64,000 nucleotides of DNA from Candidatus Limnocylindrales bacterium (GTDB taxonomy: Bacteria > Chloroflexota > Dormibacteria > CF-121): assembly GCA_035632635.1 (NCBI GenBank), contig DASQGL010000074.1, positions 4,601-68,600 on the forward strand, read 5' to 3'. Shown here one piece after another: positions 1-42,725 of this stretch (within the stretch, counting starts at the first letter, position 1; every line of letters begins with the position of its first letter). The notes under the pieces are model-generated. The model did not search any database, was not told the DNA's origin, and saw only the letters and a list, made by a program, of their open reading frames with translations. A program made the position numbers and the translations under genes.

Positions 1-1436
1 CCTGGACCACCTACAACTACATGGCGCTCTGGATCGGCATGTCGCACAACATCCCGACCTACCTGCTGGCCTCCGGCCTGGTCGCGCTCGGCATGGCCTG
101 GTACCAGGCGATCTTGACCATCGCGCTGGCGAACGTCATCGTCCTCATCCCGATGCTGCTCAACAGCCACGCGGGCACGAAATACGGGATTCCCTATCCC
201 GTGTTCGCGCGGGCGTCCTTCGGCGTCTTCGGCGCCAACGTGGCGGCGCTGCTCCGGGCGGGAGTGGCCTGCGGCTGGTTCGGAATCCAGACCTGGATCG
301 GCGGCGGCGCGCTCTACACGCTGGCCGGCGCGCTCTTCGGCAGCGGCTGGACGAACGCCGGTGCCATCTTCGGCCACCCCTGGACGCAGTGGCTGAGCTT
401 CGCCATCTTCTGGGCGATCAACATCGCGATCATCGTCCGCGGCATGGACGCCGTGCGCCGCTTTGAGAACTGGGCCGCGCCCTTCGTCCTGATCGTCGCC
501 TTCGGGCTGCTCGCCTGGATGGTGACCAAGGCCGGCGGCTTCGGTCCGATCGTCAGCCAGGGCGGCACGATCGGCTGGGGTACCGACTTCTGGCTGAAGC
601 TCTTCCCGCCGTCGCTCATGGGCATGATCGCCTTCTGGTCGACGCTCTCCCTGAACATGCCCGACTTCACGCGCTTCGGCAAGAGCCAGCGGGCCCAGGC
701 GATCGGCCAGGTGCTCGGCCTTCCGACCACGATGACGATCTTCCCGCTGGTGGCCGTGCTGATCACGTCCGCGACGGTAGTCGTCTACGGCAAGGCGATC
801 TGGGACCCGGTGGTCCTGACCGGCAAGTTCACGAACCCGATCGTGATCGTCTTCGCGCTCTTCAGCCTGGCGGTCGCCACCCTGTCCGTGAACGTCGCGG
901 CGAACGTGGTCAGTCCCTCGTATGACTTCTCCAACGTCTGGCCCAAGCTGATCAGCTTCCGGACCGGTGGCCTGATCACCGGTGTGCTCGGGATCCTGAT
1001 CCAGCCCTGGCGCCTGCTCGAGAGCGCCAACGTCTACATCTTCACCTGGCTCGGCTTCTACGGCGGGGCGCTGGGCGCGATCGCCGGCGTCCTCATCGCC
1101 GACTACTGGGTCAGGCGGCAGACTCGGCTCAAGCTGGCCGACCTCTATAGAGAGAACGGCATCTACTCGTACACGGGCGGATTCAACCTGCGGGGGATCG
1201 CCGCGCTCCTGATCGGCGGGGTCCTCGCCGTGGGCGGGGCCTACTCGGCCCCGGGCAATGGGCCGTTCCCCGCGTCCGGAATCTTGCCACCCCTGTACAA
1301 CTTCCCGCTCATCCACCTGTACGACTACAGCTGGGTGGTCGGTTTGGTGGCGGCGTTCTTGAGCTACCTTGCCCTCTCGGCGATCTTCCCGGTCGGGCGC
1401 GTGGAACGGAGGGCGCAACCGGCGGCGGCGGTCTAG
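1..1436 (+). CDS. NCS1-family nucleobase/hydantoin:cation symporter (5' end outside window)
   Basis: The long hydrophobic ORF 21..1436 is still in frame back to position 1, so it is probably N-terminally truncated. It has a multi-TM profile typical of the cytosine/uracil/allantoin/hydantoin permease family. It is the first gene of an operon encoding hydantoinase-pathway enzymes. Confidence 0.8.
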   Translation, partial: WTTYNYMALWIGMSHNIPTYLLASGLVALGMAWYQAILTIALANVIVLIPMLLNSHAGTKYGIPYPVFARASFGVFGANVAALLRAGVACGWFGIQTWIGGGALYTLAGALFGSGWTNAGAIFGHPWTQWLSFAIFWAINIAIIVRGMDAVRRFENWAAPFVLIVAFGLLAWMVTKAGGFGPIVSQGGTIGWGTDFWLKLFPPSLMGMIAFWSTLSLNMPDFTRFGKSQRAQAIGQVLGLPTTMTIFPLVAVLITSATVVVYGKAIWDPVVLTGKFTNPIVIVFALFSLAVATLSVNVAANVVSPSYDFSNVWPKLISFRTGGLITGVLGILIQPWRLLESANVYIFTWLGFYGGALGAIAGVLIADYWVRRQTRLKLADLYRENGIYSYTGGFNLRGIAALLIGGVLAVGGAYSAPGNGPFPASGILPPLYNFPLIHLYDYSWVVGLVAAFLSYLALSAIFPVGRVERRAQPAAAV

Positions 1437-1513
1437 CTTCGCGAATCGACACGAGGTGGACTCCCTTCCTCGCGGCGGGGAGTCCACCAGCTTTTACGGG
1501 CAAGAGGAGGAGG

Positions 1514-2548
1514 ATGGCGAGACTCAGCTTCGGCGTCTGCTTCGCCCCGGACCCCCCGCCCTCGCGATGGGTGGATCTGACCAGGCTCGCCGAGCGGTGG
1601 GGCTTCGAATACGCCTGGCTGTTCGACTCACACGTCCTCTGGCACGAGGTCTATCCGATCTTCACCCTCATGGCGGCGGCGACGACCACCATCAAGATCG
1701 GCCCCTGCGTGACGAATCCCGCGACTCGAGATCCCACCGTGACCGCCAGCGTCATGGCGACCCTCAACGAGATCTCCCATGGCCGCATGGTGCTGGGCAT
1801 GGGGCGCGGCGACAGCGCCCAGCGCGTGCTCGGCCGCAAGCCGGTCCCGGTGGAGGACATGGAGGAGGATTGCCGGGTCATCCGCGCGCTCGCCCAGGGT
1901 CAGGAAGCGTCGGTCGACGGCCGGCCGGTCCGGATCAAGTGGGCCCACGGCGAGCTCCCGATCTGGGTGGCAGGCTACGGCCCCAAGGCGCTGCGTGCGG
2001 CGGGCCGGGTCGCGGACGGCGTGATCATCCAGCTCGCCGATCCGGCGATCATCCGCTGGTGCCTGCGGTTCGTTCGCGAAGGGGCGGAGGAGGCCGGGCG
2101 CGACTTCTCCTCGATCCAGGTGCAGGCGGCCGCCCCCGCCTTCATCGCCGACGATCTGCGCACGGCCCGTGAGCAGGTCCGCTGGTTTCCAGCGCTCGTC
2201 TCGAACCATGTGGTAGACCTGCTCAAGCGCTATGACCCGGGAGACCTGCCGGCCGCGCTCACCGACTACATCAAAGCGCGGGAGGACTACGACTACGATG
2301 AGCACGCGAAGCGGGGCGCCGCCCATGCGGAGTTCGTCCCGGACGACGTCGTCGATCGGTTCTGCGTGATCGGGAACGTGGCGCAAAGCCTCAACCGGGT
2401 CCAGGAACTGGTCGATGCGGGCGTGCACCAGTTCAACCTCTATCTGATGGTCGAGAACCCGCAATCCGTGATCGAGACCTACGGCCGGGAGATCATCCCG
2501 CACTTTCAGTCCCAGCTCGAATCGGCCGCGAGCTCAACCCGCGGCTAA
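1514..2548 (+). CDS. LLM-class (luciferase-like) F420-dependent oxidoreductase
   Basis: It is 344 aa. The N-terminal region (GFEYAWLFDSH...) and overall similarity match the luciferase-like monooxygenase / F420-dependent reductase family. Upstream lies an SD-like aggaggagg. Confidence 0.8.
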   Translation: MARLSFGVCFAPDPPPSRWVDLTRLAERWGFEYAWLFDSHVLWHEVYPIFTLMAAATTTIKIGPCVTNPATRDPTVTASVMATLNEISHGRMVLGMGRGDSAQRVLGRKPVPVEDMEEDCRVIRALAQGQEASVDGRPVRIKWAHGELPIWVAGYGPKALRAAGRVADGVIIQLADPAIIRWCLRFVREGAEEAGRDFSSIQVQAAAPAFIADDLRTAREQVRWFPALVSNHVVDLLKRYDPGDLPAALTDYIKAREDYDYDEHAKRGAAHAEFVPDDVVDRFCVIGNVAQSLNRVQELVDAGVHQFNLYLMVENPQSVIETYGREIIPHFQSQLESAASSTRG

Positions 2549-2566
2549 GAGAGGAGAGAAAAGGAT

Positions 2567-3412
2567 ATGGCGAAGATACGAGCCGCCCTGATCCAGGCTC
2601 ATGCGAACATGCCCAAGGAGGATGCGATCCGCAAACACGAGCAGCTGATCGGGAAGGCGGCGGCTGCGGGCGCCCAGATCACCTGCCTGCAGGAGATCTT
2701 TCACGGCCCCTATTTCTGCGCCGAGCAGGACCCGAAATGGTATGCGACGGCGGAGCGCGACGACGGTCCGACCGTCCGCCGCATGCAGGAGCTCGCCACA
2801 AAGCACAAGATGGCGCTGGTCGTTCCCTTCTACGAGGAGGCGCAGACCGGCGTCTACTACAACACGGCGATCCTGATCGAAAACGACGGTCGGGTGCTGG
2901 GCAAATATCGCAAGACCCATATCCCGCACGTGGGGCCGTGCTTCTGGGAGAAGTTCTACTTCAAGCCGGGCAACCTCGGCTACCCGGTCTGGGACACGTC
3001 GGTCGGCCGGATCGGAATCCTGATCTGCTACGACCGGCATTTTCCGGAGCCGGCCCGCGAACTGGGACTCAAGGGCGCCGAGCTCGTCTTCAACCCGTCG
3101 GCCACGGTCAAGTCGCTCTCCCGCTACCTCTGGGAGCTCGAACAGCCGGCCCATGCGGTCGCGAACGGCTACTTCATCGGGGCGATCAACCGGGTCGGCG
3201 TCGAGAAGCCGCTCAACGGCGCGGAGTTCTACGGTTCGAGCTACTTCTGCGACCCCCGGGGCCGCATCATCGCGAAAGCGTCGGAGACCGAAGACGAGGT
3301 GCTCGTCTGCGAGCTAGACCTCGACTTGATCCGCGAGGTCCGCAACACCTGGCAGTTCATGCGAGACCGGCGTCCAGAGACGTACCACGAGCTCGTGGAG
3401 CTGCTTCCATGA
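2567..3412 (+). CDS. beta-ureidopropionase / N-carbamoyl-amino-acid amidohydrolase (nitrilase superfamily)
   Basis: It is 281 aa and belongs to the CN-hydrolase family. The catalytic Cys lies in the ILICYD context, and the conserved Glu and Lys regions are present. Upstream lies an SD-like gagaggagag. Confidence 0.85.
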   Translation: MAKIRAALIQAHANMPKEDAIRKHEQLIGKAAAAGAQITCLQEIFHGPYFCAEQDPKWYATAERDDGPTVRRMQELATKHKMALVVPFYEEAQTGVYYNTAILIENDGRVLGKYRKTHIPHVGPCFWEKFYFKPGNLGYPVWDTSVGRIGILICYDRHFPEPARELGLKGAELVFNPSATVKSLSRYLWELEQPAHAVANGYFIGAINRVGVEKPLNGAEFYGSSYFCDPRGRIIAKASETEDEVLVCELDLDLIREVRNTWQFMRDRRPETYHELVELLP

Positions 3413-4788
3413 AGATCCTGATCAAGGGCGGCACCGTGGTCACCGCCAGCGAGACGGCCAGGGCGGACGTCCTCGTGGTGGACGAGAAGGTCGCCTCCAT
3501 CGGCTCCGGGCTCGACGGCAAGGCCGACCGGGTGATCGACGCCACCGGGCGGCTCGTGATGCCGGGCGGCATCGACGCGCATACCCACATGGAGCTGCCC
3601 TTCGGCGGTACCTTCGCCTCGGACGACTTCGCCACGGGCACGGCGGCGGCGGCCTGGGGCGGCACCACCACGATCGTGGACTTCGCGGTGCAGAGCTACG
3701 GCGAAAGCCTGGGCAAAGGTCTCGAAACCTGGATGAAGAAGGCGGCCGGCAAGGCGCACATCGACTACGGGTTCCACATGATCGTACGCGAGATCAACGA
3801 CGGAATCCTCAAGGAGATGGATGCGCTGGTCAGGCAAGGCGTGCCCTCCTTCAAGCTCTTCATGGCCTATCCCGGTGTCTTCATGCTCGACGACGCGTCC
3901 ATCTTCAAGGCCATGAGCCGGACGGCCCAAAACGGCGGGCTGATCATGATGCACGCCGAGAACGGCGGGGCGATCGACGTGCTCGTCCACCGCTACCTGG
4001 CGGAGAAGAAGACCGCCCCCATCAACCATGGGCTGACGCGGCCATCCTCGATGGAGGGAGAAGCCACCCATCGGGCGATCGCGCTGGCGCGGCTGGCGGA
4101 CGTGGCCGTGTATATCGTCCACCTCAGCTCGAAGGAGGCGCTCGATGCGGTGCGGGAGGCGCGCGACGACGGGGCGCCCGCGTATGCCGAAACCTGCCCC
4201 CAGTACCTCTACCTGAGCCTCGACGACCTCGGCCGCCCGGGCTTCGAAGGTGCGAAGTACGTCTGCTCCCCGCCGCTCCGCCCCCGACTCCACCAGGAAG
4301 AGCTCTGGAAGGGACTCTTGAAAGACGACCTGCAGATCGTCTCCACCGACCACTGCCCGTTCCACTACCGGAAGCAGAAGACGCTCGGCAGAGGCGACTT
4401 CTCCAAGATCCCGAACGGTCTCCCGGGGGTCGAGGATCGTTTCACCTTGATCTACGACGGCGGCGTGGCTCGAGGGCGGATCAGCCCGAACCGGTTCGTG
4501 GAACTGGTCTCCACCGCTCCGGCCCGCATGTTCGGGCTCTACCCCAAAAAGGGTACGATCGCGCCCGGCTCCGATGCCGACATCGTCGTCTTCAACCCCA
4601 GGGTGGAGCGGATGCTGTCGTCGAAGACGCACCATATGAACGTCGACTACTCGGCCTATGAGGGCCGCAAGGTCAAGGGAGTCCCCGAGGTGGTGATGCA
4701 GCGAGGCAAGGTGCTGGTCGAGAATGGGAAGTTCCACGGCCGCAGGGGGGACGGCCAGTTCCTGAAGCGGAACAGGTCCCAACCGTGA
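3409..4788 (+). CDS. dihydropyrimidinase / D-hydantoinase
   Basis: ATG 3409 overlaps the upstream TGA (ATGA). The protein is 460 aa. The N-terminus MKILIKGGTVV...GGIDAHTHMELPF is classic for cyclic amidohydrolases. Confidence 0.9.
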   Translation: MKILIKGGTVVTASETARADVLVVDEKVASIGSGLDGKADRVIDATGRLVMPGGIDAHTHMELPFGGTFASDDFATGTAAAAWGGTTTIVDFAVQSYGESLGKGLETWMKKAAGKAHIDYGFHMIVREINDGILKEMDALVRQGVPSFKLFMAYPGVFMLDDASIFKAMSRTAQNGGLIMMHAENGGAIDVLVHRYLAEKKTAPINHGLTRPSSMEGEATHRAIALARLADVAVYIVHLSSKEALDAVREARDDGAPAYAETCPQYLYLSLDDLGRPGFEGAKYVCSPPLRPRLHQEELWKGLLKDDLQIVSTDHCPFHYRKQKTLGRGDFSKIPNGLPGVEDRFTLIYDGGVARGRISPNRFVELVSTAPARMFGLYPKKGTIAPGSDADIVVFNPRVERMLSSKTHHMNVDYSAYEGRKVKGVPEVVMQRGKVLVENGKFHGRRGDGQFLKRNRSQP

Positions 4789-4807
4789 TTCGCGTAAGGA
4801 GGAGAAT

Positions 4808-6256
4808 ATGATCGCGACCAAGACGGTGTCCGCCTTCATCGGAGGTCGGTTCGAGGAGGCGCGTTCGAAGCAGGTCGATGAGATCCCCAATCCGGCGACC
4901 GGGGAGACCATCGCCCAGCTACCCCACTCGACGCCCGATGACATCAATCGGGCCGTTGAGGCGGCGGTCAAGGCTTTTCCCTCGTGGAGCGAGACGCCGG
5001 TTCCCGACCGGGCCCAGGTGCTGTTTCGCTTCAAGGCGCTCTTCGATCAGCACGTCGATGAGCTGGCCGCGATCGTGACCCGGGAAAATGGGAAGACGCT
5101 CGACGAATCGCGCGGCGAGGTCAAACGCGCGATCGAGGTCATCGATTTCGCCTGCGGCGCTCCGACCCTGATGATGGGGCAGAACCTCGACCAGATCGCC
5201 CGCGGCATCGACGAGGAGCTGACCCGCTTCCCGGTGGGCGTGGTGGCCGGCATCACGCCGTTCAACTTCCCGAACATGGTGCCGCTGTGGATGATCCCGG
5301 TGGCGCTCGCCTGCGGGAACACGTTCGTGCTCAAGCCCTCCCAGCTCACCCCGCTCTCCGCGATGCGGATCGCCGAGCTGCTGGTGGAGGCCGGGGTGCC
5401 GGACGGCGTCTTCAACGTCGTGCACGGCGCCAAGGACACGGTCGACGCCCTGCTCACCCATCCGGACGTCGCCGCCATCTCGTTCGTGGGCTCGGCCCAG
5501 GTCGCCGCCGAGATCTACCGCAACGGGGCGGCTCACGGGAAACGCGTACAGGCGCTCGGCGGCGCGAAGAATCACATCCTGGTCATGGACGACGCCGACC
5601 TCGAACGGTCGGCCCCGCACGTCGTCTCCTCGGCCTTCGGGAACGCCGGCCAGCGCTGCCTGGCCGGCAGCGTCGCGGTCGGAGTCGGCAAGGTCGGGGA
5701 CGCGCTCGTGTCCGAGCTGCGCAGCGAAGCGTCGAAGTTGCGGGTCGGGCCGGGGACCGATCCGAAGACCACCATGGGTCCGGTCATCCGCGGCGAGCGC
5801 AAGCGGCGTCTGATCGAGTACATCGACGAGGCGCAGGCGCAGGGCGCTCAGCTCGTCCAGGACGGACGGGACGGCGGGCCGAAAGACGGCTTCTTCCTCG
5901 GTCCCACGATCTTCGACCGGGTCACCCCGGACATGCGCATCTGGAAGGACGAGCTGTTCGGCCCCGTCCTTTCCGTGGTGCGGGCTGCCGACATCGACCA
6001 GGCGCTCGCGATCTTGAACTCGAGCACCTACGGCAACATGGCGTCGATCTTCACCACCTCGGGCAAGAATGCACGCGAGTTCAAGCGGCGGGCCGAGGCC
6101 GGCATGCTCGGCGTCAACATCGGGGTGGCGGCTCCGATGGCGTTCTTCCCGTTCACCGGCTGGAAGAACTCGTTCTTCGGAGACCTGCACGCCACCGGGA
6201 TGGACAGCGTGCGTTTCTACACGCGGCACAAGGTCACGACGACGCGATGGCTGTAA
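4808..6256 (+). CDS. mmsA: CoA-acylating methylmalonate/malonate-semialdehyde dehydrogenase
   Basis: It is 482 aa and belongs to the aldehyde dehydrogenase family. The MmsA-like N-terminus and the catalytic Cys context GQRCLA are present. Upstream lies the SD aggagga. Confidence 0.85.
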   Translation: MIATKTVSAFIGGRFEEARSKQVDEIPNPATGETIAQLPHSTPDDINRAVEAAVKAFPSWSETPVPDRAQVLFRFKALFDQHVDELAAIVTRENGKTLDESRGEVKRAIEVIDFACGAPTLMMGQNLDQIARGIDEELTRFPVGVVAGITPFNFPNMVPLWMIPVALACGNTFVLKPSQLTPLSAMRIAELLVEAGVPDGVFNVVHGAKDTVDALLTHPDVAAISFVGSAQVAAEIYRNGAAHGKRVQALGGAKNHILVMDDADLERSAPHVVSSAFGNAGQRCLAGSVAVGVGKVGDALVSELRSEASKLRVGPGTDPKTTMGPVIRGERKRRLIEYIDEAQAQGAQLVQDGRDGGPKDGFFLGPTIFDRVTPDMRIWKDELFGPVLSVVRAADIDQALAILNSSTYGNMASIFTTSGKNAREFKRRAEAGMLGVNIGVAAPMAFFPFTGWKNSFFGDLHATGMDSVRFYTRHKVTTTRWL

Positions 6257-7587
6257 AAGAGGCGGCGCCGCACGTGCTGAGCGCCGAAGAGATCGTTGCC
6301 ATGTGCCGGCGCTACACCCTCTACGACTGGATGGCGCAGTCGGCCGCCGACCCGATCCCGGTCGACCACGCGAAGGGTGTCTACTTCTACACCCCGGACG
6401 GCAAGCGTTACATCGACTTCAACAGTCAGCTGATGAGCGTGAATGCTGGCCACGGCCATCCGCGGATCATCGAGGCCATCACGCGCCAGGCAGAGAAGCT
6501 CGCCTTCGCCAATCCATTTATGGCGCACGAGCCGAGGGCGTTGCTCGGGCGCAAGCTCGTCGAGCTGCTGCCCGGCGACATCGACAAGGTGTTCTTCACC
6601 CTTGGCGGCGCGGAGGCGAACGAGAACGCGGTGAAGATCGCGCGGGCGGTTACCGGACGGCAGAAGATTGTGTCGCGGTACCGTTCCTACCACGGCGCGA
6701 CCGGCGCCGGCATCGGCATGACCGGCGACCCGCGCCGCTGGCCCAACGAGCTGGGGCTCTCCGGCTTCGTCCACGTCCTCGATCCCTACCACGGTCCGCA
6801 GCGTGAGGTCGACTCCACCGAAGACGCGCTCCGCTACCTGGACGAGACCATCCAGCTCGAGGGACCGCAGACGATCGCCGCCTTCGTCCTGGAAACGGTC
6901 ACCGGTACCAACGGCATCCTGATCCCTCCAGACGGCTACCTCCAGGGGGTTCGCGAACTCTGCGACCGGTACGGCATCTTGATGGTCTGCGACGAGGTGA
7001 TGGCCGGTTTCGGCCGCACCGGCGAATGGTTCGCGGTCGACCACTGGAAGGTCGTCCCAGACATCCTGACCATGGCCAAAGGCTTGACGAGCAGCGCCGT
7101 TCCGCTGGGTGCCGTGGGTATGCGCCGGCACGTCGCCGAGTACTTCGATACCCACACCTTCTGGGGCGGCCTCACCTACAACAGCCACCCGCTCGGCTGT
7201 GCGGCGGCGCTGGGCACGATCCAGGCCTATGAAGAGGACGACATGATCGGCAACGCCAGGCGGATGGGGGTCGTCATGCGACGCCACCACCTGGAGTTGC
7301 AGCGCAAGCACCCCTGCGTCGGGCTGGTCCGCAACATCGGACTGTTCGGGATTCTCGAGCTGGTGCGTAACCGCACGACGATGGAGCCGCTCGCGCCGTT
7401 CAACGGGACGTCCCCGGAGATGAAGGCGATCGCGGCTCACCTGCGCGAGCATGGCCTCTACACCTTCCTGCGCTGGCACACGATCATGACCAACCCGCCG
7501 CTCTGCATCACCGAAGCCGAGCTGGCCGAGGGGTTTGCCATTCTGGATTCGGCGCTCAGCATCGGCGACCAGGCTGTGACATCGTGA
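6247..7587 (+). CDS. class-III (omega) aminotransferase, beta-alanine/beta-aminoisobutyrate--pyruvate type
   Basis: ATG 6247 overlaps the mmsA 3' end. The protein is 447 aa. It is a PLP fold-type I class III aminotransferase, with the DEVMAGFGRTG region. Confidence 0.85.
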   Translation: MAVKEAAPHVLSAEEIVAMCRRYTLYDWMAQSAADPIPVDHAKGVYFYTPDGKRYIDFNSQLMSVNAGHGHPRIIEAITRQAEKLAFANPFMAHEPRALLGRKLVELLPGDIDKVFFTLGGAEANENAVKIARAVTGRQKIVSRYRSYHGATGAGIGMTGDPRRWPNELGLSGFVHVLDPYHGPQREVDSTEDALRYLDETIQLEGPQTIAAFVLETVTGTNGILIPPDGYLQGVRELCDRYGILMVCDEVMAGFGRTGEWFAVDHWKVVPDILTMAKGLTSSAVPLGAVGMRRHVAEYFDTHTFWGGLTYNSHPLGCAAALGTIQAYEEDDMIGNARRMGVVMRRHHLELQRKHPCVGLVRNIGLFGILELVRNRTTMEPLAPFNGTSPEMKAIAAHLREHGLYTFLRWHTIMTNPPLCITEAELAEGFAILDSALSIGDQAVTS

Positions 7588-7964
7588 CCAGGACGACCGA
7601 GGCGGAGGTGCAGGCTTTCCTGAAGGATTACCCGCCCGAGATTCGTGCGGTCGCCTTGCGCGCCCGCCAGCTGCTGGCCACCGAGATGCCGGACGCGGTG
7701 GAGCAGGTGAAGCCGGGCTGGAAGGTGATGCAGTACGGCGCGAATGCCTCGATGCAAGCGCAGCTCATCGTCATCCAGCCCCAGGCGAACTGGGTCAACC
7801 TCGGATTCGCACACGGGTCGGAGCTCCCGGATCCGGTGGGGCTGCTCGAGGGGACCGGCAAGGGCATCCGTCACGTCAAGCTGCGCACCGTCAAAGACGT
7901 CGAGCGCGAGCCGGTGCGGGCGCTGGTGAAGGCCGAAGTCCGCATCGCGGAGGCCGGCCGCTGA
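7584..7964 (+). CDS. DUF1801 domain protein (YdhG-like)
   Basis: A GTG start at 7584 overlaps the upstream stop (GTGA). The 126-aa sequence is typical of DUF1801. Confidence 0.6.
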   Translation: MTRTTEAEVQAFLKDYPPEIRAVALRARQLLATEMPDAVEQVKPGWKVMQYGANASMQAQLIVIQPQANWVNLGFAHGSELPDPVGLLEGTGKGIRHVKLRTVKDVEREPVRALVKAEVRIAEAGR

Positions 7965-7974
7965 CTCCCTCCCC

Positions 7975-8763
7975 ATGAAGGAGGATGGCGCGCGTCGCCG
8001 GGCCGGCCGCACCCTGATCCGGCGTGGGCTGCAGCGAGAGACCGCCGATCGGCGCCTCCTCCAGGCGGCCCCGCTGGACGATACGCTGCACACCGACCAG
8101 TGGCGGGTCCTGCGGATCATGGCCGAGTTCGTCGATGGGTTCGATGCGCTCGCTCGGGTGGGTCGCGCGGTCACCGTCTTCGGGTCCGCCCGCGTCCAGG
8201 ACGCCGACCCGATGTACGCTCAGGCCCGGCGGGTTGGCTCGGAGCTGGCCCGGCAGGGCTTCGCCGTCATCACCGGCGGAGGTCAGGGCATCATGGAGGC
8301 GGCCAACCGCGGTGCGCATGAGGCGGGCGGCCTGTCCGTCGGGTGCAACATCGAGCTCCCCTTCGAGCAGGAGTTCAACCCGTATGTCGACCTCGGTATC
8401 GAGTTCCATTACTTCTTCGTCCGCAAGATGATGTTCGTCAAGTACGCGGAAGGCTTCGTTATCTTCCCCGGCGGATTCGGCACCCTTGACGAGCTCTTCG
8501 AGTCGCTCACCCTCATCCAGACCGGCAAGATCACCCATTTCCCGGTGATCCTCTTCGGGTCCGACTACTGGCATGGGCTGCGGCAGTGGGTGAACGAGGT
8601 CGTGCTGGCGCAGGGCAAGATCTCGCCGTCCGACCTCGATCTGCTGACGGTCACCGACGATCCGGAGCACGTCGTCGCCGTGATGCAGCAGTTCCACGAA
8701 CGCAAGCTTCGGGAGGCGAACGCGGCGCCGGCGCCCCACCCGCGAAAGGGCGGCATGCAATGA
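7975..8763 (+). CDS. LOG-family protein (cytokinin riboside 5'-monophosphate phosphoribohydrolase / TIGR00730-like)
   Basis: Motifs ITGGGQGIMEAAN and PGGFGTLDELFE. Confidence 0.8.
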   Translation: MKEDGARRRAGRTLIRRGLQRETADRRLLQAAPLDDTLHTDQWRVLRIMAEFVDGFDALARVGRAVTVFGSARVQDADPMYAQARRVGSELARQGFAVITGGGQGIMEAANRGAHEAGGLSVGCNIELPFEQEFNPYVDLGIEFHYFFVRKMMFVKYAEGFVIFPGGFGTLDELFESLTLIQTGKITHFPVILFGSDYWHGLRQWVNEVVLAQGKISPSDLDLLTVTDDPEHVVAVMQQFHERKLREANAAPAPHPRKGGMQ

Positions 8764-9848
8764 CGGAGGAGGTGCTCGACGTCCGGCTCCTCACCGATGG
8801 CGGTCAGCGGGCCGAAGACGTGGCAGCGGAACTGGCTGCCTTTCTCGAGGCCGCCAGCGCCACGATCGAGATCGCGATCTACGACCTGAATCTATCTGGG
8901 CCGCCCGCAGCCGTGGTGGCCGCCGCCGTCCACGCAGCAACCGGCCGCGGGGTCAAGGTCCGCCTCGCCTACAACGTCGACTTTCCCGAGCCCATCCCGA
9001 TCCCTCCCCCGGCGCAGCCGGACCAGGCCTTCATCGACAGCCTGGGGGTTCCGGTACGAGGGATCGCCGGCGTGCCGGCGTTGATGCATCACAAGTACGC
9101 GATCCGGGATGCCGCGACCCCGAATGCGGCCGTCTGGACCGGGTCCACCAACTGGACGAACGATTCCTGGACCCGCGAGGAGAACGTGATCGTCCGGATC
9201 CTCTCACAGGCGCTTGCGGGGGAATACCGGCGCAACTTCGAGGAACTGTGGTCGACGGGACGGGTCGAGATCTCCGGCAAGTACGACCTGCCCCTGGTCG
9301 ACCTGGTCGACCGCCAGTGCGGGCCCGTCCGCGCCAGGGTGTACTTCTCGCCGGGTCGCGGCCGGCGCATGGCCCATCTGATCGCGGACCGCCTCGCCCA
9401 CGCCCGCCGGCGGATTCGCCTCTGCTCGCCGGTGATCAGCGATGGACCGATCCTGGGCACCCTCGCCGAGATGGTCGCGCACCCTCATCCCGATTTCAAA
9501 GGCGTCTATGACCGGACCCAGATGCAGGAGGTGCTCGCCCAGTGGCAGGTGAACCCGCACGCCGCCTGGAAGGCCCCCGCGTTCAAGACGGTCGCCGCCG
9601 GCCTTCCATTCGGATCCAAGGTCACCACGCCCTATTCGCCGACGAGCGTGCACGACTACATGCACGCCAAGGTCCTGGTCGTCGACGATACGGTGCTGAC
9701 CGGGAGCTACAACCTCTCGCACAGCGGCGAGGAGAATGCGGAGAACCTGCTGGAGCTCAAGAGTTCGGCCCTGGCCGACTTCTTCGCCGGCTTCATCGAC
9801 CAGCTGTACGCGCGGTACGCACCCGTCCCTGCGGCGGCCCCACAATGA
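8760..9848 (+). CDS. phospholipase D-like protein with two HKD motifs
   Basis: The ATG overlaps the LOG stop (ATGA). The protein is 363 aa. It carries two HxK(x4)D motifs (HHKYAIRD and HAKVLVVDD). No TM segment is evident. Confidence 0.75.
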   Translation: MTEEVLDVRLLTDGGQRAEDVAAELAAFLEAASATIEIAIYDLNLSGPPAAVVAAAVHAATGRGVKVRLAYNVDFPEPIPIPPPAQPDQAFIDSLGVPVRGIAGVPALMHHKYAIRDAATPNAAVWTGSTNWTNDSWTREENVIVRILSQALAGEYRRNFEELWSTGRVEISGKYDLPLVDLVDRQCGPVRARVYFSPGRGRRMAHLIADRLAHARRRIRLCSPVISDGPILGTLAEMVAHPHPDFKGVYDRTQMQEVLAQWQVNPHAAWKAPAFKTVAAGLPFGSKVTTPYSPTSVHDYMHAKVLVVDDTVLTGSYNLSHSGEENAENLLELKSSALADFFAGFIDQLYARYAPVPAAAPQ

Positions 9849-9852
9849 TCCC

Positions 9853-10554
9853 ATGACGCTCCTCGCGCGCGTCGCGCTCGAGATGCTGATCCTGGTGACC
9901 GCCCCCATCGTCGTCCTCGCGATCGGCCGTCACGGCTGGCATCGGAGCCACCTCGCCGGACATCCGGTGTTTGCGATCGTCGCGTTCAATGCCGCGCTGA
10001 TGGCGCTGATGGCGCCGCCGATCGTCCGCCTGACCGCCTCATCGACGCTCCTGCTCGGGCTGAGCCAGCTGGTGTTCCTGCTCGCCGCGATGGCGTTCTG
10101 GTGGCCGGTCTTGCGGCCGACGACGCGGGGCGGCCTGAGCCCGATGACGAAGATCGGGTATCTGTTCGTCGCCGGCGTTCCGCCGACCATCCCCGGTGTC
10201 GTGCTCGGGTTTTCGCGCGGGCTGCTCTACCCCGGGGTCCAGGCGAGCGGGGCCTTCGGACTGACGCCGCTCGAGGACCAGCAGCTCGCCGGGTTGCTGC
10301 TCTTCGCCACGGCGAAAGCGGTGCTCGTGACGCTGACCCTTTTCACGCTCTGGCGCCTGCTGGCTCAAGACGGGGAGCCGCCCGACGACTCATGGGATGA
10401 CGACACGATCGCGGCCGGGCCACCCGATACGCCCGCCTGGTTCCGCCGCCTCGACCAGGACCTGCCGCAGGAGCAGGCGGGAGCGAGGCCGATCGGCGCA
10501 CCCGGCGCGGATCGAGCGTGGGTGGGCGCCGGTCAGACGAGCGGCCAGGGGTAG
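9853..10554 (+). CDS. polytopic membrane protein (possibly cytochrome oxidase assembly CtaG-like; function tentative)
   Basis: It is about 234 aa with 5-6 predicted TM helices and a W/P-rich segment FWWPVLRP. The start lies 4 nt after the PLD stop. Confidence 0.5.
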   Translation: MTLLARVALEMLILVTAPIVVLAIGRHGWHRSHLAGHPVFAIVAFNAALMALMAPPIVRLTASSTLLLGLSQLVFLLAAMAFWWPVLRPTTRGGLSPMTKIGYLFVAGVPPTIPGVVLGFSRGLLYPGVQASGAFGLTPLEDQQLAGLLLFATAKAVLVTLTLFTLWRLLAQDGEPPDDSWDDDTIAAGPPDTPAWFRRLDQDLPQEQAGARPIGAPGADRAWVGAGQTSGQG

Positions 10555-11960: not shown

Positions 11961-12983
11961 GTGAGCTCGGTCCTGGATCCCCGTCGGTGGCATCGCGCCC
12001 TCACGACGTTTCAGAAAGTGGCGATCGCGAACAGCGCGATCATCATCGTGGGGGCGGTCGGCGGGCCCCTGATCGTCCTGAACGTCTCCGGTCAACGCCT
12101 CCCCTACCTCCTCCTCTTCCTGGCCGCCGGACTGCTCGCGATCCTGCTCGTGAACTTCGTGATCCTGCGGCTGGCGTTCCGGCCGCTGCGCGAGCTGGAG
12201 TCGACGATGACCCGGGTCCAACCGGGCCTGCAGGAGCAGCGTGCGCCGGACAACTTCGACGATCCGGACGTCCGGCGGATGGCCCAGGTCTTCAATTCCA
12301 TGCTGGACCGGCTCGAGCACGAGCGGCATGACGCGGCCCAGCGGGTGCTGCAGGCGCAGGAACGAGAGCGCCAGCGCGTCGCGCGGGAGCTCCACGATCA
12401 GACCGGCCAGGCGCTCACCCACGAGATCATCAGCCTGGATCTGCTCCGCGAGCGGACGACCGACCCCAAGGCGCGGCAGCAGCTCGAGGCGGTCAAGCGC
12501 ACGCTCGAGGAGACGCTGGAGGAGGTGCACCGCATGGCGCAGGACCTGCGGCCCTCCGTGCTCGACGACCTCGGGCTGGTTCCGGCGCTGCGCACCCTCG
12601 CCCGGCAGCGGAGCGGCCCGCGGGTCCGCCTGCAGACCGATGGCGTCCGCGATCGCTTCCCGGCCCCGATCGAGACCGCTCTCTACCGGATCGCCCAGGA
12701 GGCGGTGACGAACGCGAACAAGTACGCCCGGGCGTCCACGATCGAGATCGACCTCCGCTGCCGGAACGGCGGCCGCGTCGAACTCCGGGTTCGCGACGAT
12801 GGCATCGGATTCGACCCGGCGACGATCCCGGATCACCAGGCGCCGGGCCGGGCCGGACTGGGCCTGTTCGGCATGCGCGAGCGGGCCGCCCTCCTGCACG
12901 GCAGCGTCGAGGTGCGTTCCGCGCCGAACCGGGGGACGGAGGTGGTGGCCGAGCTTCCCCTGAGCGAGGTCGATGGTTACTGA
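11961..12983 (+). CDS. sensor histidine kinase (HisKA_3/NarL-type partner)
   Basis: It has two N-terminal TM segments, an H-box ELHDQTGQAL, and a HATPase_c region DDGIGFD...GLGLFGMRER. Confidence 0.8.
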   Translation: MSSVLDPRRWHRALTTFQKVAIANSAIIIVGAVGGPLIVLNVSGQRLPYLLLFLAAGLLAILLVNFVILRLAFRPLRELESTMTRVQPGLQEQRAPDNFDDPDVRRMAQVFNSMLDRLEHERHDAAQRVLQAQERERQRVARELHDQTGQALTHEIISLDLLRERTTDPKARQQLEAVKRTLEETLEEVHRMAQDLRPSVLDDLGLVPALRTLARQRSGPRVRLQTDGVRDRFPAPIETALYRIAQEAVTNANKYARASTIEIDLRCRNGGRVELRVRDDGIGFDPATIPDHQAPGRAGLGLFGMRERAALLHGSVEVRSAPNRGTEVVAELPLSEVDGY

Positions 12984-13635
12984 GCGGCGTCCCATCCGCG
13001 TCATGCTCGTCGAGGATCACAACCTCGTCCGGGCAGGCATTCGCGCGGTCATCGATGGGCAGAGCGACATCCAGGTGATCGCGGAGGCGACCGATGGGCG
13101 CGAGGCGGTTCACCTCGCCCGCCAGCGCTGCCCGGATGTCGCCGTGGTCGACGTCGCGATGCCCGGGATGTCCGGGATCGAGGCAACCCGGGAGATCCGC
13201 CGCCTGTGCCCGCAGGCGCAGGTCCTGATCCTCACGGCTCACGACAACGAGGAATATTTCTTCCAGACTCTCAAGGCGGGCGCCGTCGGCTACGTCTTGA
13301 AGAAGGCGGCCGCCAGCGACCTGATCGCCGCGATCGAGGCCGCCAGCCGCGGGGAGCCGTACCTGTACCCGTCCGTGGCGCGCCTGCTCGTCTCCGATTA
13401 CCTGCAGCGCGCGCCCGGGCGCGATACCTACGAGCCGCTCAGCGACCGCGAGCGGGAGGTGCTGCGGCTGGTCGCCGAGGGTCGGACGAACCGCCAGATC
13501 GCGGACACGCTGTTCCTGAGCATCAAGACGGTGCAGACCCACCGGGATCACATCATGAAGAAGCTCCGCATGCACGATCGCACCGAGCTCGTCAAGTACG
13601 CCATCCGCAAGGGGCTGATCGAAGCCGACGGATGA
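12973..13635 (+). CDS. LuxR/NarL-family response regulator
   Basis: It has a REC domain (VMLVEDH...D...) and a C-terminal LuxR HTH (LSDREREVLRLVAEGRTNRQIA). The start overlaps the kinase stop. Confidence 0.85.
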   Translation: MVTERRPIRVMLVEDHNLVRAGIRAVIDGQSDIQVIAEATDGREAVHLARQRCPDVAVVDVAMPGMSGIEATREIRRLCPQAQVLILTAHDNEEYFFQTLKAGAVGYVLKKAAASDLIAAIEAASRGEPYLYPSVARLLVSDYLQRAPGRDTYEPLSDREREVLRLVAEGRTNRQIADTLFLSIKTVQTHRDHIMKKLRMHDRTELVKYAIRKGLIEADG

Positions 13636-14645
13636 AGCTCGGGCTCTTCCTCCCGACCGAGACCGGTGTCGACCTGCCCGCGATGATCGCGCTCGCCCGT
13701 CGCGCGGAAGATCTCGGATATGACTCGGCCTGGGTGCCAGAAGCCTACGGCACGGATGCCGTCTCGATCCTGGGGGCGCTGGCCGCCACTACCTCAGGGA
13801 TAGGGCTGGGGACGGGCATCGTCAATGTCTTCAGTCGTACGCCGGCGCTGTTGGCGCAGACCGCCACCACGCTCGACCAGCTCTCCGGGGGACGGTTTCG
13901 CCTCGGGCTCGGGACCTCCGGTCACCAGGTGATCGCCGGCTGGCACGGCATGGCCTACGAGCACGCGGTGCGGCGCCTGCGCGAGGCGATCGAGATCGTG
14001 CGCACGGTCATGCGTCGGGATGCCGTTCGATACGAGGGCGAGATCTTCCATCTGGGCCAGGGCATCAAGCTGATGACCCATCCGATCCGCCCCAGGGTGC
14101 CCATCTATCTCGCCACGCTGACCCCGGCCGGCCTGCGCCTGACCGGCGAGCTGGCCGACGGCTGGATGCCGACCGTCTTCTCGCCCGATCACCTGGCGCT
14201 GTTCCGCTCGGACCTCGAGGCCGGGGCGCGGCTGCGGGGCGGGGGACTGGAGGGTCTCGACCTCGCCCCCAGCGTCCCGGTGGCGATCGACGACGATCGG
14301 TCCCGGGCTCGGGACGCCCTCCGGCCCTGGACGGCGCTCTACGTCGGGGGAATGGGCTCTCACGCCCGCAACTTCTACAACCAGACCGTCCGGCGCTACG
14401 GCTTCGAGCGAGAGGCCCTCGAGATCCAGCAGCTGTACCTGGGAGGCAAGAAGCTCGAGGCGATCGCGCGCGTGCCGGACGCGCTCGTCGACGCGATCGC
14501 GATCGCCGGCCCGCCGGGCTACGTGCGAGAGCGCCTGCAGGCGTATCGGGCCGTGGGCGTGACGAGCCTCCTGGCCCGCGTCCACGCGAAGGATCAGGCC
14601 GGCGCGTTGCGCGCCGTCGAGCTGCTGGCCGGGGCCAACCGCTAG
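13632..14645 (+). CDS. LLM-class F420-dependent oxidoreductase
   Basis: ATG 13632 overlaps the response-regulator TGA (ATGA). It is 338 aa and luciferase-like (GYDSAWVPE..., FRLGLGTSG). Confidence 0.8.
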   Translation: MKLGLFLPTETGVDLPAMIALARRAEDLGYDSAWVPEAYGTDAVSILGALAATTSGIGLGTGIVNVFSRTPALLAQTATTLDQLSGGRFRLGLGTSGHQVIAGWHGMAYEHAVRRLREAIEIVRTVMRRDAVRYEGEIFHLGQGIKLMTHPIRPRVPIYLATLTPAGLRLTGELADGWMPTVFSPDHLALFRSDLEAGARLRGGGLEGLDLAPSVPVAIDDDRSRARDALRPWTALYVGGMGSHARNFYNQTVRRYGFEREALEIQQLYLGGKKLEAIARVPDALVDAIAIAGPPGYVRERLQAYRAVGVTSLLARVHAKDQAGALRAVELLAGANR

Positions 14646-23929: not shown

Positions 23930-23931
23930 CC

Positions 23932-35497: not shown

Positions 35498-35818
35498 TCA
35501 TGCGGGGCGCCCTTCGTACTTCGCAAGCGTGTCATCGAGCGCGGTCGAGAGGTCCACCTCGAGGCTGTTCGCGAGCAGAACGACGATGAAAAGGACATCA
35601 CCGAGCTCATCAGCAATCGAGCGCGGCGTGTCCTTCGAGGTGCGTGGCTTGTCACCGAAGCGGTGGTTGAGCTCTCGACCCAGCTCTCCCACTTCTTCGA
35701 CCAGCCGCACGTACTGGGAGAGCGCCGACCAGTAGCGGCCGCGCGACCGGATCCAGGCATCCAGCTCGCGCTGCAGGTCGGAAAGCGTCCGAGGACTAGG
35801 CCGATTGGCGGGGGGCAT
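35498..35818 (-). CDS. MazG-like nucleotide pyrophosphohydrolase domain protein
   Basis: It has EEVGELGRE and DELGDVLF (the EExxE/DxxxD-type MazG helices). Its ATG overlaps the ligD TGA. Confidence 0.7.
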   Translation of the reverse strand: MPPANRPSPRTLSDLQRELDAWIRSRGRYWSALSQYVRLVEEVGELGRELNHRFGDKPRTSKDTPRSIADELGDVLFIVVLLANSLEVDLSTALDDTLAKYEGRPA

Positions 35819-40125: not shown

Positions 40126-40521
40126 GTGATGGCGCTGACGGCGGTGGACCTGGCCACGGTGGAATCCGCCATGTCCGGCCAGTTCCCCTTCTGCTTCCCC
40201 AATACCACGCTCGCCCAGGCCGCACGCATGATGGCGCAGAACCGGGTGCTCGAGCTCCCGGTGATCGTCGACCAGCGTTGCCTCGGCTACATCTCGTATC
40301 TCGACATCCTCCAGCGCTACGTGAAAGCCAGGCTCGAAGCCCGCGCGACCGATATCATCCGGACGCCGCTTCCGGAGGTCCGGATCACCACGCCGCTCAA
40401 GGAGGCCGTGCGCGTCCTCCGCGAGACGGGCCGGCAACTCGTCCTCGTGACCACGCCCGAGGGCATGCCGCTCGGCGCGCTCACCGTCAAGGACCTGGCC
40501 GGCGCGCTGGGACGCCGCTGA
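40126..40521 (+). CDS. CBS-pair domain protein
   Basis: It is 131 aa with two CBS motifs. A TATAAT lies 7 nt upstream of ATG 40129, which suggests a leaderless transcript. The GTG at 40126 is alternative. Confidence 0.65.
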   Translation: MMALTAVDLATVESAMSGQFPFCFPNTTLAQAARMMAQNRVLELPVIVDQRCLGYISYLDILQRYVKARLEARATDIIRTPLPEVRITTPLKEAVRVLRETGRQLVLVTTPEGMPLGALTVKDLAGALGRR

Positions 40522-42725
40522 TGCCCACCCTCAGCAAGGTCACCCGGCCGCTGCTGGCCACGATCGCGGCGCAGGAGAGTGCCGCCGGCGCGCTGGCGCG
40601 CCTGCGCGCCTCCGACGCCGAGGCGCTGCTCGTGGTCCGGGACGGCGAGATCGCAGGGGTCTTCGGACATCGCGAGGCGGTGCATGCGCTCCTCGACGGC
40701 GCGGAGCCGGTCGAGCGCTACATGCGGCAGCCTTTGCCGAGCCGCTCGGTCGCGGACTCGATGGAGGCCGGCGCCGACATCATGTTCCGCGAGGACACCC
40801 CGTACGTGATCCTGACCCAGGACGAGGGCCCGCTGTTCCGCAAGACCGCCAGGCCGGTCGGGATGATGACGGCGTTCGAGGTCCTGGAAGAGATCGGCCG
40901 GACGACCACGGACACGGCCGCGAACAAGGTGTTCCTGGGGCGCCGGGACCTCGGCCTCAACGTTCCCGTGTCGCCTTGCCAGCGCGCCTGCCCGATCCAC
41001 CAGGACATCGCGACCTACGTCGACTACGTGTCGCAGGGACGCTACCTCGACTCCTGGCTGGTGATCCATGAGACGAACCCGTTCCCGTCGATGCTGGGCC
41101 GGCTGTGCAACCACCCGTGCGAGACCGACTGCAAGCGCGGCTGGGTGCAGGGCCCGGAGAACGCGGTCTCGATCAAGTCGATCAAGCGCTTCGCGACCGA
41201 CTACGCCTTTGCCCGCGGGGTGAAGATCCGCCACCAGCTCGCACCGGAGAACGGCCGGCGCGTGGCCATCGTCGGATCGGGCCCGGCGGGGCTGACCGCC
41301 GCCCAGGACCTCCGCCTGATGGGTTATGGCGTCGACCTCTATGAGCGCGAGGCGAAGCTGGGCGGCCTGCTCTCGGCGAGCATCCCGCATTTCCGCTTCG
41401 AGATGGACCAGCTGCTCTGGGAGATCGACATGATCGTGCAGATGGGCGTCACCGTGCACCTCAACGCGAATGTGGGCAAGGAGATCCCGCTGAGCGACCT
41501 GCTGGCGAAATACGACGCGGTCTTCGTGGCCGTCGGCATGATGACCGGCCGCATCCTGCCCGTTCCAGGCTCGGACCTGCCCGAGGTCATCTCGGCCATG
41601 GAGTTCCTTCGGGTCCGGTCCTACGACCGGATCCCGGACAGCTTCCCGAAGGGAGGCGACGTCGTGGTCATCGGCGGCGGCGCCGTGGCGACCGATGCCG
41701 CCCAGACCTCGATCAAGAGCGGGGCGCGTAAGGTCTGGATGGTCTCCATCGAGCCCGCCGACCGTCTGCCGGCCTTCGGCAATGAGCTGGTCGAGGCCCG
41801 TGAGATCGGGCTGACCCTGCACACCGGGGTGATCGTCAACGCGATCAAGGCGGACGAGCAGGGTCATGTCAACGGGGTGGAGTTCATCCGCGTGGACGAG
41901 AGCAAGCTCGAATTCGACCCCGAGAGCGGCAAGCTGCTCATCAACACGGTCCAGAAGCTGCCGGGCACCGAGCATGTGATTCCCTGCAAGTACGCGATTT
42001 TCGCCTCCGGCCAGATCATGGACTTCCAGGACAAGGAAACCCCACTCACCCCGCGTAAATTGATCGAGGCGGATACCGGCGGTCACACCAGGGTCGGCAA
42101 GCTCTTCGCAGGCGGCGACTGCGTCGAAGGACCGTCCTTCATCGTCAACGCGGTGGGCTGGGGGCATCGGGTTGCGCGCGCCATCAACGAGTTCCTCGGG
42201 GCGTCCGTGCCGCGTGACGCGAAGGCCCTGACCGTCATCGAGGCGACCGACGACCACCGGGAGGCGGACTACTACAATCGCGAGGAGCCGCCTATCCTGC
42301 CGCCCGAAAAGCGCATGGACATGACGCCGGTCGAGCTGCCCTGGAACGACGAGCAGGCGATCACCGCGGCCCTGCGCTGCTTCCAGTGCGACACGGTCCA
42401 CCACGTGGACGAATCCACCTGTATCCTGTGCGGGGCCTGCGATGACGTGTGCCCGGAGAAGGCGCTGGACGTCGTGGTCTACGGCGAATCCCGCGATACC
42501 TCCAGTGGCGGCTTCGTCGAGATCTGCAACACGGTGGTCGGCGAGGAGTTCGGGGGCAAGGCCGGCAAGATTCTGGTGAACTACGATCGCTGTACGAACT
42601 GTCGCATCTGTGAGGACCATTGCCCTGTGAACTGCATCACCTTCCAGCGTGTCCGATTCCGCGACGACGCCATGCAGATCATCCCCCTGACGCCGGTCGC
42701 GACGAAAGCGCCGGCAGGCGTTTGA
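40521..42725 (+). CDS. CBS-pair / GltD-like NAD(P)H-FAD oxidoreductase / 2x[4Fe-4S] ferredoxin fusion protein
   Basis: The ATG overlaps the upstream TGA (TGATG). It encodes 734 aa. The N-terminus carries a CBS pair. A GltD/DPD-type Fe-S helical region follows (CQRACPIHQDI...CNHPCETDCKRG). Two Rossmann motifs are present (VAIVGSGPAGL and VVVIGGGAVA). The C-terminus carries two CxxCxxCxxxCP ferredoxin motifs. Confidence 0.8.
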   Translation: MPTLSKVTRPLLATIAAQESAAGALARLRASDAEALLVVRDGEIAGVFGHREAVHALLDGAEPVERYMRQPLPSRSVADSMEAGADIMFREDTPYVILTQDEGPLFRKTARPVGMMTAFEVLEEIGRTTTDTAANKVFLGRRDLGLNVPVSPCQRACPIHQDIATYVDYVSQGRYLDSWLVIHETNPFPSMLGRLCNHPCETDCKRGWVQGPENAVSIKSIKRFATDYAFARGVKIRHQLAPENGRRVAIVGSGPAGLTAAQDLRLMGYGVDLYEREAKLGGLLSASIPHFRFEMDQLLWEIDMIVQMGVTVHLNANVGKEIPLSDLLAKYDAVFVAVGMMTGRILPVPGSDLPEVISAMEFLRVRSYDRIPDSFPKGGDVVVIGGGAVATDAAQTSIKSGARKVWMVSIEPADRLPAFGNELVEAREIGLTLHTGVIVNAIKADEQGHVNGVEFIRVDESKLEFDPESGKLLINTVQKLPGTEHVIPCKYAIFASGQIMDFQDKETPLTPRKLIEADTGGHTRVGKLFAGGDCVEGPSFIVNAVGWGHRVARAINEFLGASVPRDAKALTVIEATDDHREADYYNREEPPILPPEKRMDMTPVELPWNDEQAITAALRCFQCDTVHHVDESTCILCGACDDVCPEKALDVVVYGESRDTSSGGFVEICNTVVGEEFGGKAGKILVNYDRCTNCRICEDHCPVNCITFQRVRFRDDAMQIIPLTPVATKAPAGV

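Follow-up and report, generated by a model that had tools for sequence, protein, structure and literature searches.

A TIGR03842-family luciferase-like protein as the candidate F420H2-dependent uracil/thymine reductase of a Chloroflexota pyrimidine-catabolic operon

The first step of reductive pyrimidine breakdown is canonically performed by dihydropyrimidine dehydrogenase (PydA/PreTA), as in PreT-PreA of Escherichia coli and the ferredoxin-dependent PydA of Clostridium chromiireducens (PMC7332683). This study analyzed a 64-kb stretch of DNA (hereafter, the window) from a metagenome-assembled genome (MAG) of the Chloroflexota, order Candidatus Limnocylindrales, in which a pyrimidine-catabolic operon carries a gene for a protein of the luciferase-like monooxygenase (LLM) type, family TIGR03842. 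For this LLM protein we propose the same reaction and the same place in the pathway as for PydA, although the two show no homology. PydA combines a dihydroorotate-dehydrogenase-like flavin mononucleotide (FMN) domain, a PreT/GltD-like flavin adenine dinucleotide (FAD) domain, and four iron-sulfur (Fe-S) clusters, with NAD(P)H or ferredoxin as its electron source, whereas the LLM protein is a single 344-amino-acid triosephosphate isomerase (TIM) barrel without Fe-S motifs, for which F420H2 would be the direct hydride donor.

Three described systems approach the proposed reaction from other pathways. SSGG-03002, an NpsU homologue and putative F420/FMN-dependent oxidoreductase, is linked by genetic evidence to reduction of the uracil C5=C6 bond in mureidomycins (PMC10714638). 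SSGG-03002 and NpsU, of the mureidomycin and napsamycin clusters, can be likened to TIGR03842 by description, but they serve antibiotic biosynthesis on a uridyl-peptide and not catabolism of the free base. A putative F420 luciferase-family 'yanthine reductase' (PMC12507026) places an F420-type LLM protein where the PydA-like UacX or YgfK would be expected, beside a ring-opening amidohydrolase and in Chloroflexota; that proposal, based solely on bioinformatic inference, differs in concerning the purine/uric-acid pathway, with SsnA as the amidohydrolase partner. The F420H2-dependent picrate reductase Fht/Npd (PMC8498797) has the LLM fold and uses F420H2 as the hydride donor to a carbon within an electron-poor ring, but it acts on a nitroaromatic xenobiotic and belongs to another LLM subfamily. 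The precedents of SSGG-03002, Fht, and the Chloroflexota uric-acid LLM protein make a uracil-reductase mechanism plausible for an LLM enzyme.

From family assignment and genomic context, we consider it likely that the TIGR03842 protein is an F420H2-dependent uracil/thymine reductase that replaces the Fe-S flavoprotein dihydropyrimidine dehydrogenase, and we hold with high confidence that its gene belongs to pyrimidine catabolism. An earlier note on this DNA had described an operon for an NCS1 permease, the LLM protein, beta-ureidopropionase, dihydropyrimidinase, semialdehyde dehydrogenase, and aminotransferase; all six genes were found, co-directional on the + strand, tightly packed, and supported by profile matches. 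The NCS1 nucleobase:cation symporter gene (3..1436, listed as 1..1436; PF02133, E=4.9e-124; TIGR00800, 388.7 bits against a cut-off of 353) has a frame open to base 3 and is 5'-truncated by the window edge; its full-length orthologue in relative L002, at the same position, has 530 amino acids, and the permease is a probable route of uracil/thymine uptake. The LLM gene (1514..2548) encodes a protein matching PF00296 (E=3.4e-61) and TIGR03842 (441.4 bits against a cut-off of 295.45). The following gene (2567..3412; PF00795, E=2.1e-66) encodes a CN-hydrolase beta-ureidopropionase (N-carbamoyl-beta-alanine amidohydrolase), of which the nearest PDB relatives are the Drosophila beta-alanine synthase 2vhh and the human beta-ureidopropionase 6ftq/8pt4, and which scored below the AguB cut-off (264.9 against 410 bits). 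The dihydropyrimidinase/D-hydantoinase gene (3409..4788; TIGR02033, 609.3 bits against a cut-off of 393.25) matched the PDB D-hydantoinase/dihydropyrimidinase entries 1yny and 3sfw at E about 1e-160. A CoA-acylating malonate/methylmalonate-semialdehyde dehydrogenase gene (4808..6256; TIGR01722, 620.5 bits against a cut-off of 448.5) and a class-III (omega-amino acid) aminotransferase gene (6247..7587; PF00202, E=3.4e-89; NF004718, 534.9 bits) complete the six. The top PDB relative of the aminotransferase is the taurine:2-oxoglutarate aminotransferase 6jix (E=3.6e-114), taurine being the sulfonate analogue of beta-alanine, and beta-alanine/beta-aminoisobutyrate is its probable substrate.

The start of one gene overlaps the end of the one before it at 3409/3412, 6247/6256, and 7584/7587, the last of these coupling the aminotransferase gene translationally to a downstream DUF1801 gene, and the remaining gaps from the LLM gene onward measure 18-19 nucleotides; these overlapping or near-abutting junctions suggest one transcription unit from the LLM gene onward. 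Every pathway step but the first has a dedicated and confidently assigned enzyme, and the LLM protein is the sole one unassigned. The earlier description of the LLM protein as the only oxidoreductase of the operon requires amendment because the aldehyde dehydrogenase is also an oxidoreductase; the step performed by that enzyme is, however, already accounted for.

In the proposed scheme, uracil or thymine would enter through the NCS1 permease, and the TIM barrel of the LLM protein would bind F420H2. The C5 hydride of F420H2 would pass directly to C6 of the pyrimidine, held over the deazaflavin in the barrel cleft, and a conserved active-site acid would protonate C5 of the pyrimidine to yield 5,6-dihydrouracil or 5,6-dihydrothymine. 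The dihydropyrimidinase would then open the ring, the CN-hydrolase would yield beta-alanine or beta-aminoisobutyrate together with CO2 and NH3, and the aminotransferase and semialdehyde dehydrogenase would lead to acetyl-CoA or propionyl-CoA. F420H2 would be regenerated elsewhere and, in the proteobacterial versions described below, by a co-transcribed Fno with NADPH. The substrate, reaction direction, F420 binding, and catalytic residues in this scheme are those that we infer from the comparisons. NADPH, the donor of the canonical dihydropyrimidine dehydrogenase, has a potential of about -320 mV. F420 is an obligate hydride carrier with a slightly lower E0' of -340 mV (PMC8498797), which suggests that pyrimidine reduction should be feasible.

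The linkage of the LLM gene to dihydropyrimidinase was examined with a family-alignment scan over one genome per GTDB species, which returned at least 600 matched stretches, at least 593 of them encoding a relative. The neighborhood census comprised the best 80 of the at least 600 stretches, which came from Chloroflexota, Dormibacterota, Actinomycetota, and Acidobacteriota, and the quantified set comprised 45 GTDB-species loci with at least 5 kb of flank on each side of the LLM gene. The results revealed a dihydropyrimidinase gene within 10 kb of the LLM gene in 43 of the 45 loci. A beta-ureidopropionase candidate was present in 39 loci and belonged to two unrelated types, with 31 of the CN-hydrolase type and 8 of the M20 type. 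PreA and PreT were found by tblastn in none of the 45 neighborhoods.

The close relatives L002 and L003 carry the same operon as the window, and in L002 the permease gene opens the cluster, the genes upstream being unrelated. A more distant locus (L004), with an LLM protein 64% identical to that of the window, has the LLM, CN-hydrolase, aminotransferase, dihydropyrimidinase, and aldehyde dehydrogenase genes in a different order and without the permease gene. Gene order and orientation are likewise shuffled among Chloroflexota/Dormibacterota, Actinomycetota, and Acidobacteriota. In the Acidobacteriota, the dihydropyrimidinase gene is divergent from the LLM gene, and the permease and hydrolase genes are convergent with it, which suggests that the linkage survived rearrangement. 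In cultured Streptomyces rimosus, the dihydropyrimidinase gene ends 18 nucleotides before the LLM gene, and the CN-hydrolase and aminotransferase genes lie 6-8 kb upstream. The differing order and orientation across phyla suggest that the link reflects selection and not shared ancestry of one operon.

Clustering of the neighboring open reading frames (ORFs) identified an NMT1/THI5-type ABC transporter (19 loci) and an M20 hydrolase (11 loci, those without a CN-hydrolase) as recurrent partners. Further recurrent neighbors, seen in Acidobacteriota loci, were a CNT nucleoside transporter, a pyrimidine-nucleoside phosphorylase, and an inosine-uridine nucleoside hydrolase. These uptake and nucleoside-catabolic neighbors point to uracil/thymine rather than hydantoins. 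In many loci, the LLM gene is kept with dihydropyrimidinase and beta-ureidopropionase where the aminotransferase and semialdehyde dehydrogenase are absent, which argues for a role in the upper pathway.

These neighborhoods also bear on the possibility that the LLM protein works in the same module on another substrate or at another step, such as on a 5-substituted uracil, an unsaturated hydantoin, or a xanthine-like ring, or in the conversion of malonic semialdehyde to 3-hydroxypropionate in the manner of PydE. We regard this possibility as unlikely. Dihydropyrimidinases are also D-hydantoinases with a broad cyclic-ureide specificity, as their PDB names indicate; in Chloroflexota, a xanthine-derived ring has been suggested as the substrate of an F420 LLM enzyme (PMC12507026); and Adf, an F420 LLM enzyme, is an alcohol dehydrogenase. 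However, the omega-aminotransferase, the methylmalonate-semialdehyde dehydrogenase, and the nucleoside-catabolic neighbors fit the products of uracil and thymine, and a role in the lower pathway conflicts both with the persistence of the LLM gene where the aminotransferase and semialdehyde dehydrogenase are absent and with the window's own semialdehyde dehydrogenase, which already handles the aldehyde. The earlier note had offered a hydantoin substrate as its alternative; this lost ground because saturated hydantoins need no reduction step, and the Acidobacteriota transporter, phosphorylase, and uridine-type hydrolase genes likewise argue against it.

The search for a canonical enzyme covered the window and the compared loci. 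The earlier note had reported PydA/PreTA as missing from the operon, and the tblastn search with E. coli PreA as the query (E<1e-10) extended this finding, revealing no PreA/PydA-type gene within the 64-kb window. The LLM protein itself was rejected as a canonical PydA/PreTA since it matched only PF00296 in Pfam and no PreA-type domain. With E. coli PreT as the query, a single window gene was matched (40278..42725, + strand), which lies 32 kb from the operon among unrelated genes. Its 815-amino-acid product comprises PF14691 (Fer4_20, a 4Fe-4S domain of the dihydropyrimidine dehydrogenase domain II type), a PreT/GltD-like FAD/NAD(P) domain, and a C-terminal two-cluster ferredoxin domain, and its first ~230 residues match no family. 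The product has neither a dihydroorotate-dehydrogenase-like domain nor a PreA-like partner, and it scored below every specific NCBIfam cut-off, the best being PRK12771 (393 against 516 bits). An M20 amidohydrolase gene (38543-39706) is located just upstream.

A plasmid collection provided a comparison with canonical clusters. In at least 11 records (Burkholderia, Caballeronia, Mycetohabitans, and Kozakia), hydA was located within ~4 kb of preA. Among the matches listed, none of these at least 11 hydA-preA records occurred among the 13 TIGR03842 records, and none of the 13 occurred among the 40 preA records. This either/or pattern of LLM and preA fits non-orthologous replacement but is only indicative. 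The plasmid hydA-like genes of Paraburkholderia aromaticivorans, Deinococcus psychrotolerans, and Paracoccus yeei were set aside as canonical comparators, as their contexts were unrelated and uninformative. Also rejected was a 477-amino-acid protein (P0039) considered as a natural LLM/CN-hydrolase fusion; it is an internally deleted chimera in which the LLM portion stops at ...RKRIE and runs on into mid-hydrolase sequence, and it is probably an assembly or gene-calling artefact.

A link to the cofactor emerged from six proteobacterial loci (L086, L087/L092, and L093-L096), namely those of Paracoccus alcaliphilus, Leisingera caerulea, Cohaesibacter sp. ES.047, the gammaproteobacterium Marinobacterium arenosum, and two marine metagenome contigs. 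In each of these loci, the TIGR03842 gene closes the row, immediately after cofG-cofH-cofD-cofC-cofE-fno, fno (npdG) being the NADPH:F420 oxidoreductase gene. The TIGR03842 members of these loci show 40-44% identity. Pyrimidine-catabolic genes were present in five of the six loci, in the form of a dihydropyrimidinase and/or an M20 hydrolase together with a class-III aminotransferase or NCS1/NMT1-type uptake, and the dihydropyrimidinase is 44-48% identical to that of the window. PreA had no tblastn match in these loci. The Leisingera caerulea island (plasmid NZ_CP081074.1, 155.7-171.6 kb) additionally carries a divergent operon pntA-pntB-aminotransferase-hydrolase-hydA-NCS1. The island is thus equipped for uptake, for supplying NADPH, for making and reducing F420, and for the hydrolytic steps, and it includes the LLM protein but no PydA. 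A DUF1330 gene recurs at the island edge in Leisingera and Paracoccus.

The position of the TIGR03842 gene beside an F420-synthesis operon supports the use of F420, and the pathway link is thereby repeated in a fifth phylum. The suggestion of an undescribed F420-dependent uracil/thymine reductase, as first made in the earlier note, draws support from the dihydropyrimidinase linkage (43 of 45), the absence of PreA and PreT from all 45 loci, and the cofGHDCE-fno loci. With somewhat less assurance, we favor the broader reading that TIGR03842 is a widespread Fe-S-free F420H2-dependent dihydropyrimidine dehydrogenase and that the horizontally acquired cofGHDCE-fno of many marine Alpha- and Gammaproteobacteria mainly feeds this enzyme.

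The protein itself was examined at the level of family, fold, and residues. The TIGR03842 (F420_CPS_4043) alignment covers residues 6-331 of the 344, and the next-best family is Mer, at 183.7 bits. FMN-class LLM models scored at most 40 bits, and no RutA model appeared among the 25 best NCBIfam matches. The AlphaFold2 model (mean predicted local distance difference test [pLDDT] score, 87.2; predicted template modeling score, 0.86) is a (beta/alpha)8 barrel with a helical lid, and the top 11 PDB matches by Foldseek are all F420-dependent LLM enzymes. The closest structures are the Mer-F420 complexes 8qpl and 1z69 (template modeling score, 0.78; 30-32% identity; E about 1e-57), followed by FGD2, FGD1, and Adf. 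In source annotations, the family members are named 'TIGR03842 family ... oxidoreductase' or carry evidently automatic names, among them Mer, G6PD, and phthiodiolone ketoreductase.

These assignments bear on a second alternative, in which the LLM protein would depend on FMN and, as an oxygenase, attack the pyrimidine ring oxidatively. Within the Rut pathway, RutA is an LLM-fold enzyme acting on uracil, and the Pfam model matched by the window protein bears the name 'luciferase-like monooxygenase'. However, the best family matches all belong to the F420 class, the nearest structures are F420 enzymes, no flavin reductase or Rut-type genes were seen among the recurrent neighbors, the proteobacterial gene sits with F420 biosynthesis and Fno, and an oxygenolytic route would leave the dihydropyrimidinase unneeded. 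We therefore consider a RutA-like oxygenase very improbable.

The segments of the barrel that hold F420 in Mer are well conserved in the LLM protein, in which the invariant Asp100 aligns with Mer Asp96. His40 is near-invariant and Trp43 is invariant; this pair presumably resembles the His/Trp pair of Fgd, as in FGD1, and of Adf. Ser39 and Ser101 also count among the invariant residues. The carboxamide that ends beta-6 in Mer corresponds to the invariant Gln173; it is named Gln178 in jMer (PMC11094777), and the aligned chain 8qpm_A has Asn at 178, either of which aligns with Gln173. The lid subdomain has family-specific invariant residues of its own, polar and aromatic in character (N231, H232, D235, Y259, Y261, and H264), and the genomic context of the LLM protein is pyrimidine catabolism, whereas that of Mer is C1 metabolism. 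The catalytic Glu6 of jMer is located at the end of beta-1, and its E6Q variant keeps 0.4% of kcat (PMC11094777). The equivalent position is Cys9 in the window protein and, among 87 family members from five phyla, was Thr in 69, Cys in 16, Ala in 1, and Val in 1, with Glu in none.

Mer is the closest characterized homologue, and a third alternative would make the LLM protein a Mer-like or other housekeeping F420 enzyme of which the position among pyrimidine genes is functionally meaningless. The protein scored below both Mer cut-offs (TIGR03555, 174.4 against 348.7 bits; NF002619, 183.7 against 276 bits) and lacks the catalytic Glu, as do all 87 members, and we rejected it as a Mer. Furthermore, chance does not explain a dihydropyrimidinase linkage in 43 of 45 loci that spans phyla in shuffled order. 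We consequently give this alternative almost no credence. The clustering with G6PD/Adf-type enzymes that the earlier note had named as evidence against its proposal was not observed, since the protein scored far below the Mer, Fgd, and Adf-related cut-offs.

Several points weigh against the assignment of the LLM protein as a pyrimidine reductase. Two of the 45 loci have no dihydropyrimidinase within 10 kb of the LLM gene, and the Paracoccus alcaliphilus locus has none within 12 kb; the one pathway-related match there, to an NMT1-type transporter, is weak (24% identity, E=1e-6). A canonical PydA may be encoded elsewhere in this MAG or in the genomes of other carriers. The substrate lid of the AlphaFold2 model (residues about 224-283) has a pLDDT of about 70. 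The characterized LLM-type F420 enzymes act on sugar phosphates, alcohols, mycolic acids, methylene-tetrahydromethanopterin, and a nitroaromatic ring, and none of those listed reduces the C=C bond of a cyclic unsaturated amide (PMC8498797). In vitro assays of SSGG-03002, the sole uracil-ring reductase implicated by genetics, failed (PMC10714638), and this protein may belong to another fold family. Finally, the support for a reductase comes from comparative genomics and not from biochemistry.

The 77-nucleotide spacer between the permease stop and the LLM start (1437-1513) carries a conserved hairpin. RNA folding predicted a 14-bp hairpin at 1455..1488 (+ strand), which has CCTCGCGG at its apex and precedes a short T-run. 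The same hairpin was found at the same position in 9 of the 11 relatives examined, and a different hairpin occupies that place in L012 and L013. The RNAalifold consensus of 10 relatives comprised 14 pairs, 8 of which showed compensatory changes, and the apical CCTCGCGG was invariant. The hairpin had no Rfam match and was also missed by a simple terminator scan of 1-10000. It is possibly a weak or partial terminator, an attenuator, a protein-binding element, or an mRNA-stability element.

At the other end of the operon, the DUF1801 gene (7584..7964, + strand; PF08818, E=8.3e-10) is absent from the 86%-identical relative L002, in which a LOG-family gene directly follows the aminotransferase gene, and it was found in no other locus compared. 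Its absence from L002 places it outside the conserved cluster, and it looks like a lineage-specific insertion. The operon had been drawn through 7964 in the earlier note; its six genes stand, and this last gene falls outside the conserved set. Farther downstream, a PLD-like ORF (8586-9848), if its first start codon is used, shares 178 nucleotides with the LOG-family gene and has 420 amino acids against 371 in the L002 orthologue; the actual start probably lies downstream of the one listed.

A second F420-class LLM gene was identified at 13686-14645 (+ strand), just downstream of a HisKA_3 histidine kinase/LuxR-type response regulator pair (11961-13635). Its N-terminally trimmed translation scored 333.9 bits with TIGR03559, for which the cut-off is 335, and its presence in the window is consistent with an F420-using host. 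Pfam annotation of about 50 of the ~60 predicted proteins revealed no F420-biosynthesis genes in the window. The region 51069-62447 includes a CoxL/glyceraldehyde-dehydrogenase-like molybdenum hydroxylase large subunit (51597-53948) that scored below the CO-dehydrogenase cut-off, followed downstream by a MoxR-type AAA ATPase, a CoxE-like VWA protein, an XdhC homologue, and a molybdopterin-related gene. A three-domain LigD (phosphoesterase, ligase, and primase-polymerase; 35818-38661, - strand), an electron-transfer flavoprotein beta/alpha pair (23153-24900, + strand), and a TldD/PmbA pair (45058-47815, + strand) are ordinary and unrelated to the operon.

The full-text literature searched contained neither an account of an F420-dependent dihydropyrimidine dehydrogenase nor any paper that mentions TIGR03842 or CPS_4043 by name; most subscription journals lie outside that literature, and an earlier description of such an enzyme elsewhere is possible. 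The new element is probably a known pathway of which the first step is taken by an unrelated enzyme family with an unrelated cofactor. If the assignment is correct, reduction of the C=C bond of a cyclic unsaturated amide would be added to the F420 chemistry of LLM enzymes, and a small, Fe-S-free, probably oxygen-tolerant uracil reductase would become available for biocatalysis and for studies of fluoropyrimidine metabolism. The cultured carriers Streptomyces rimosus, Leisingera, Cohaesibacter, and Marinobacterium make experiments straightforward. An annotation gap would also be filled, namely that of Pyd clusters seemingly without a first enzyme in hundreds of soil and marine species of five phyla (Chloroflexota, Dormibacterota, Actinomycetota, Acidobacteriota, and Proteobacteria).

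As of 2021, no F420-dependent enzyme had been experimentally studied in bacteria outside the Actinobacteria, and the role of F420 in Proteobacteria and Chloroflexi was given as unknown (PMC8498797). The proposed function would provide F420 with a defined role in primary catabolism, the recycling of pyrimidine nitrogen and carbon, outside the Actinomycetota and archaea. F420 would drive the first step of pyrimidine breakdown, which would answer why Proteobacteria and Chloroflexota make this cofactor.

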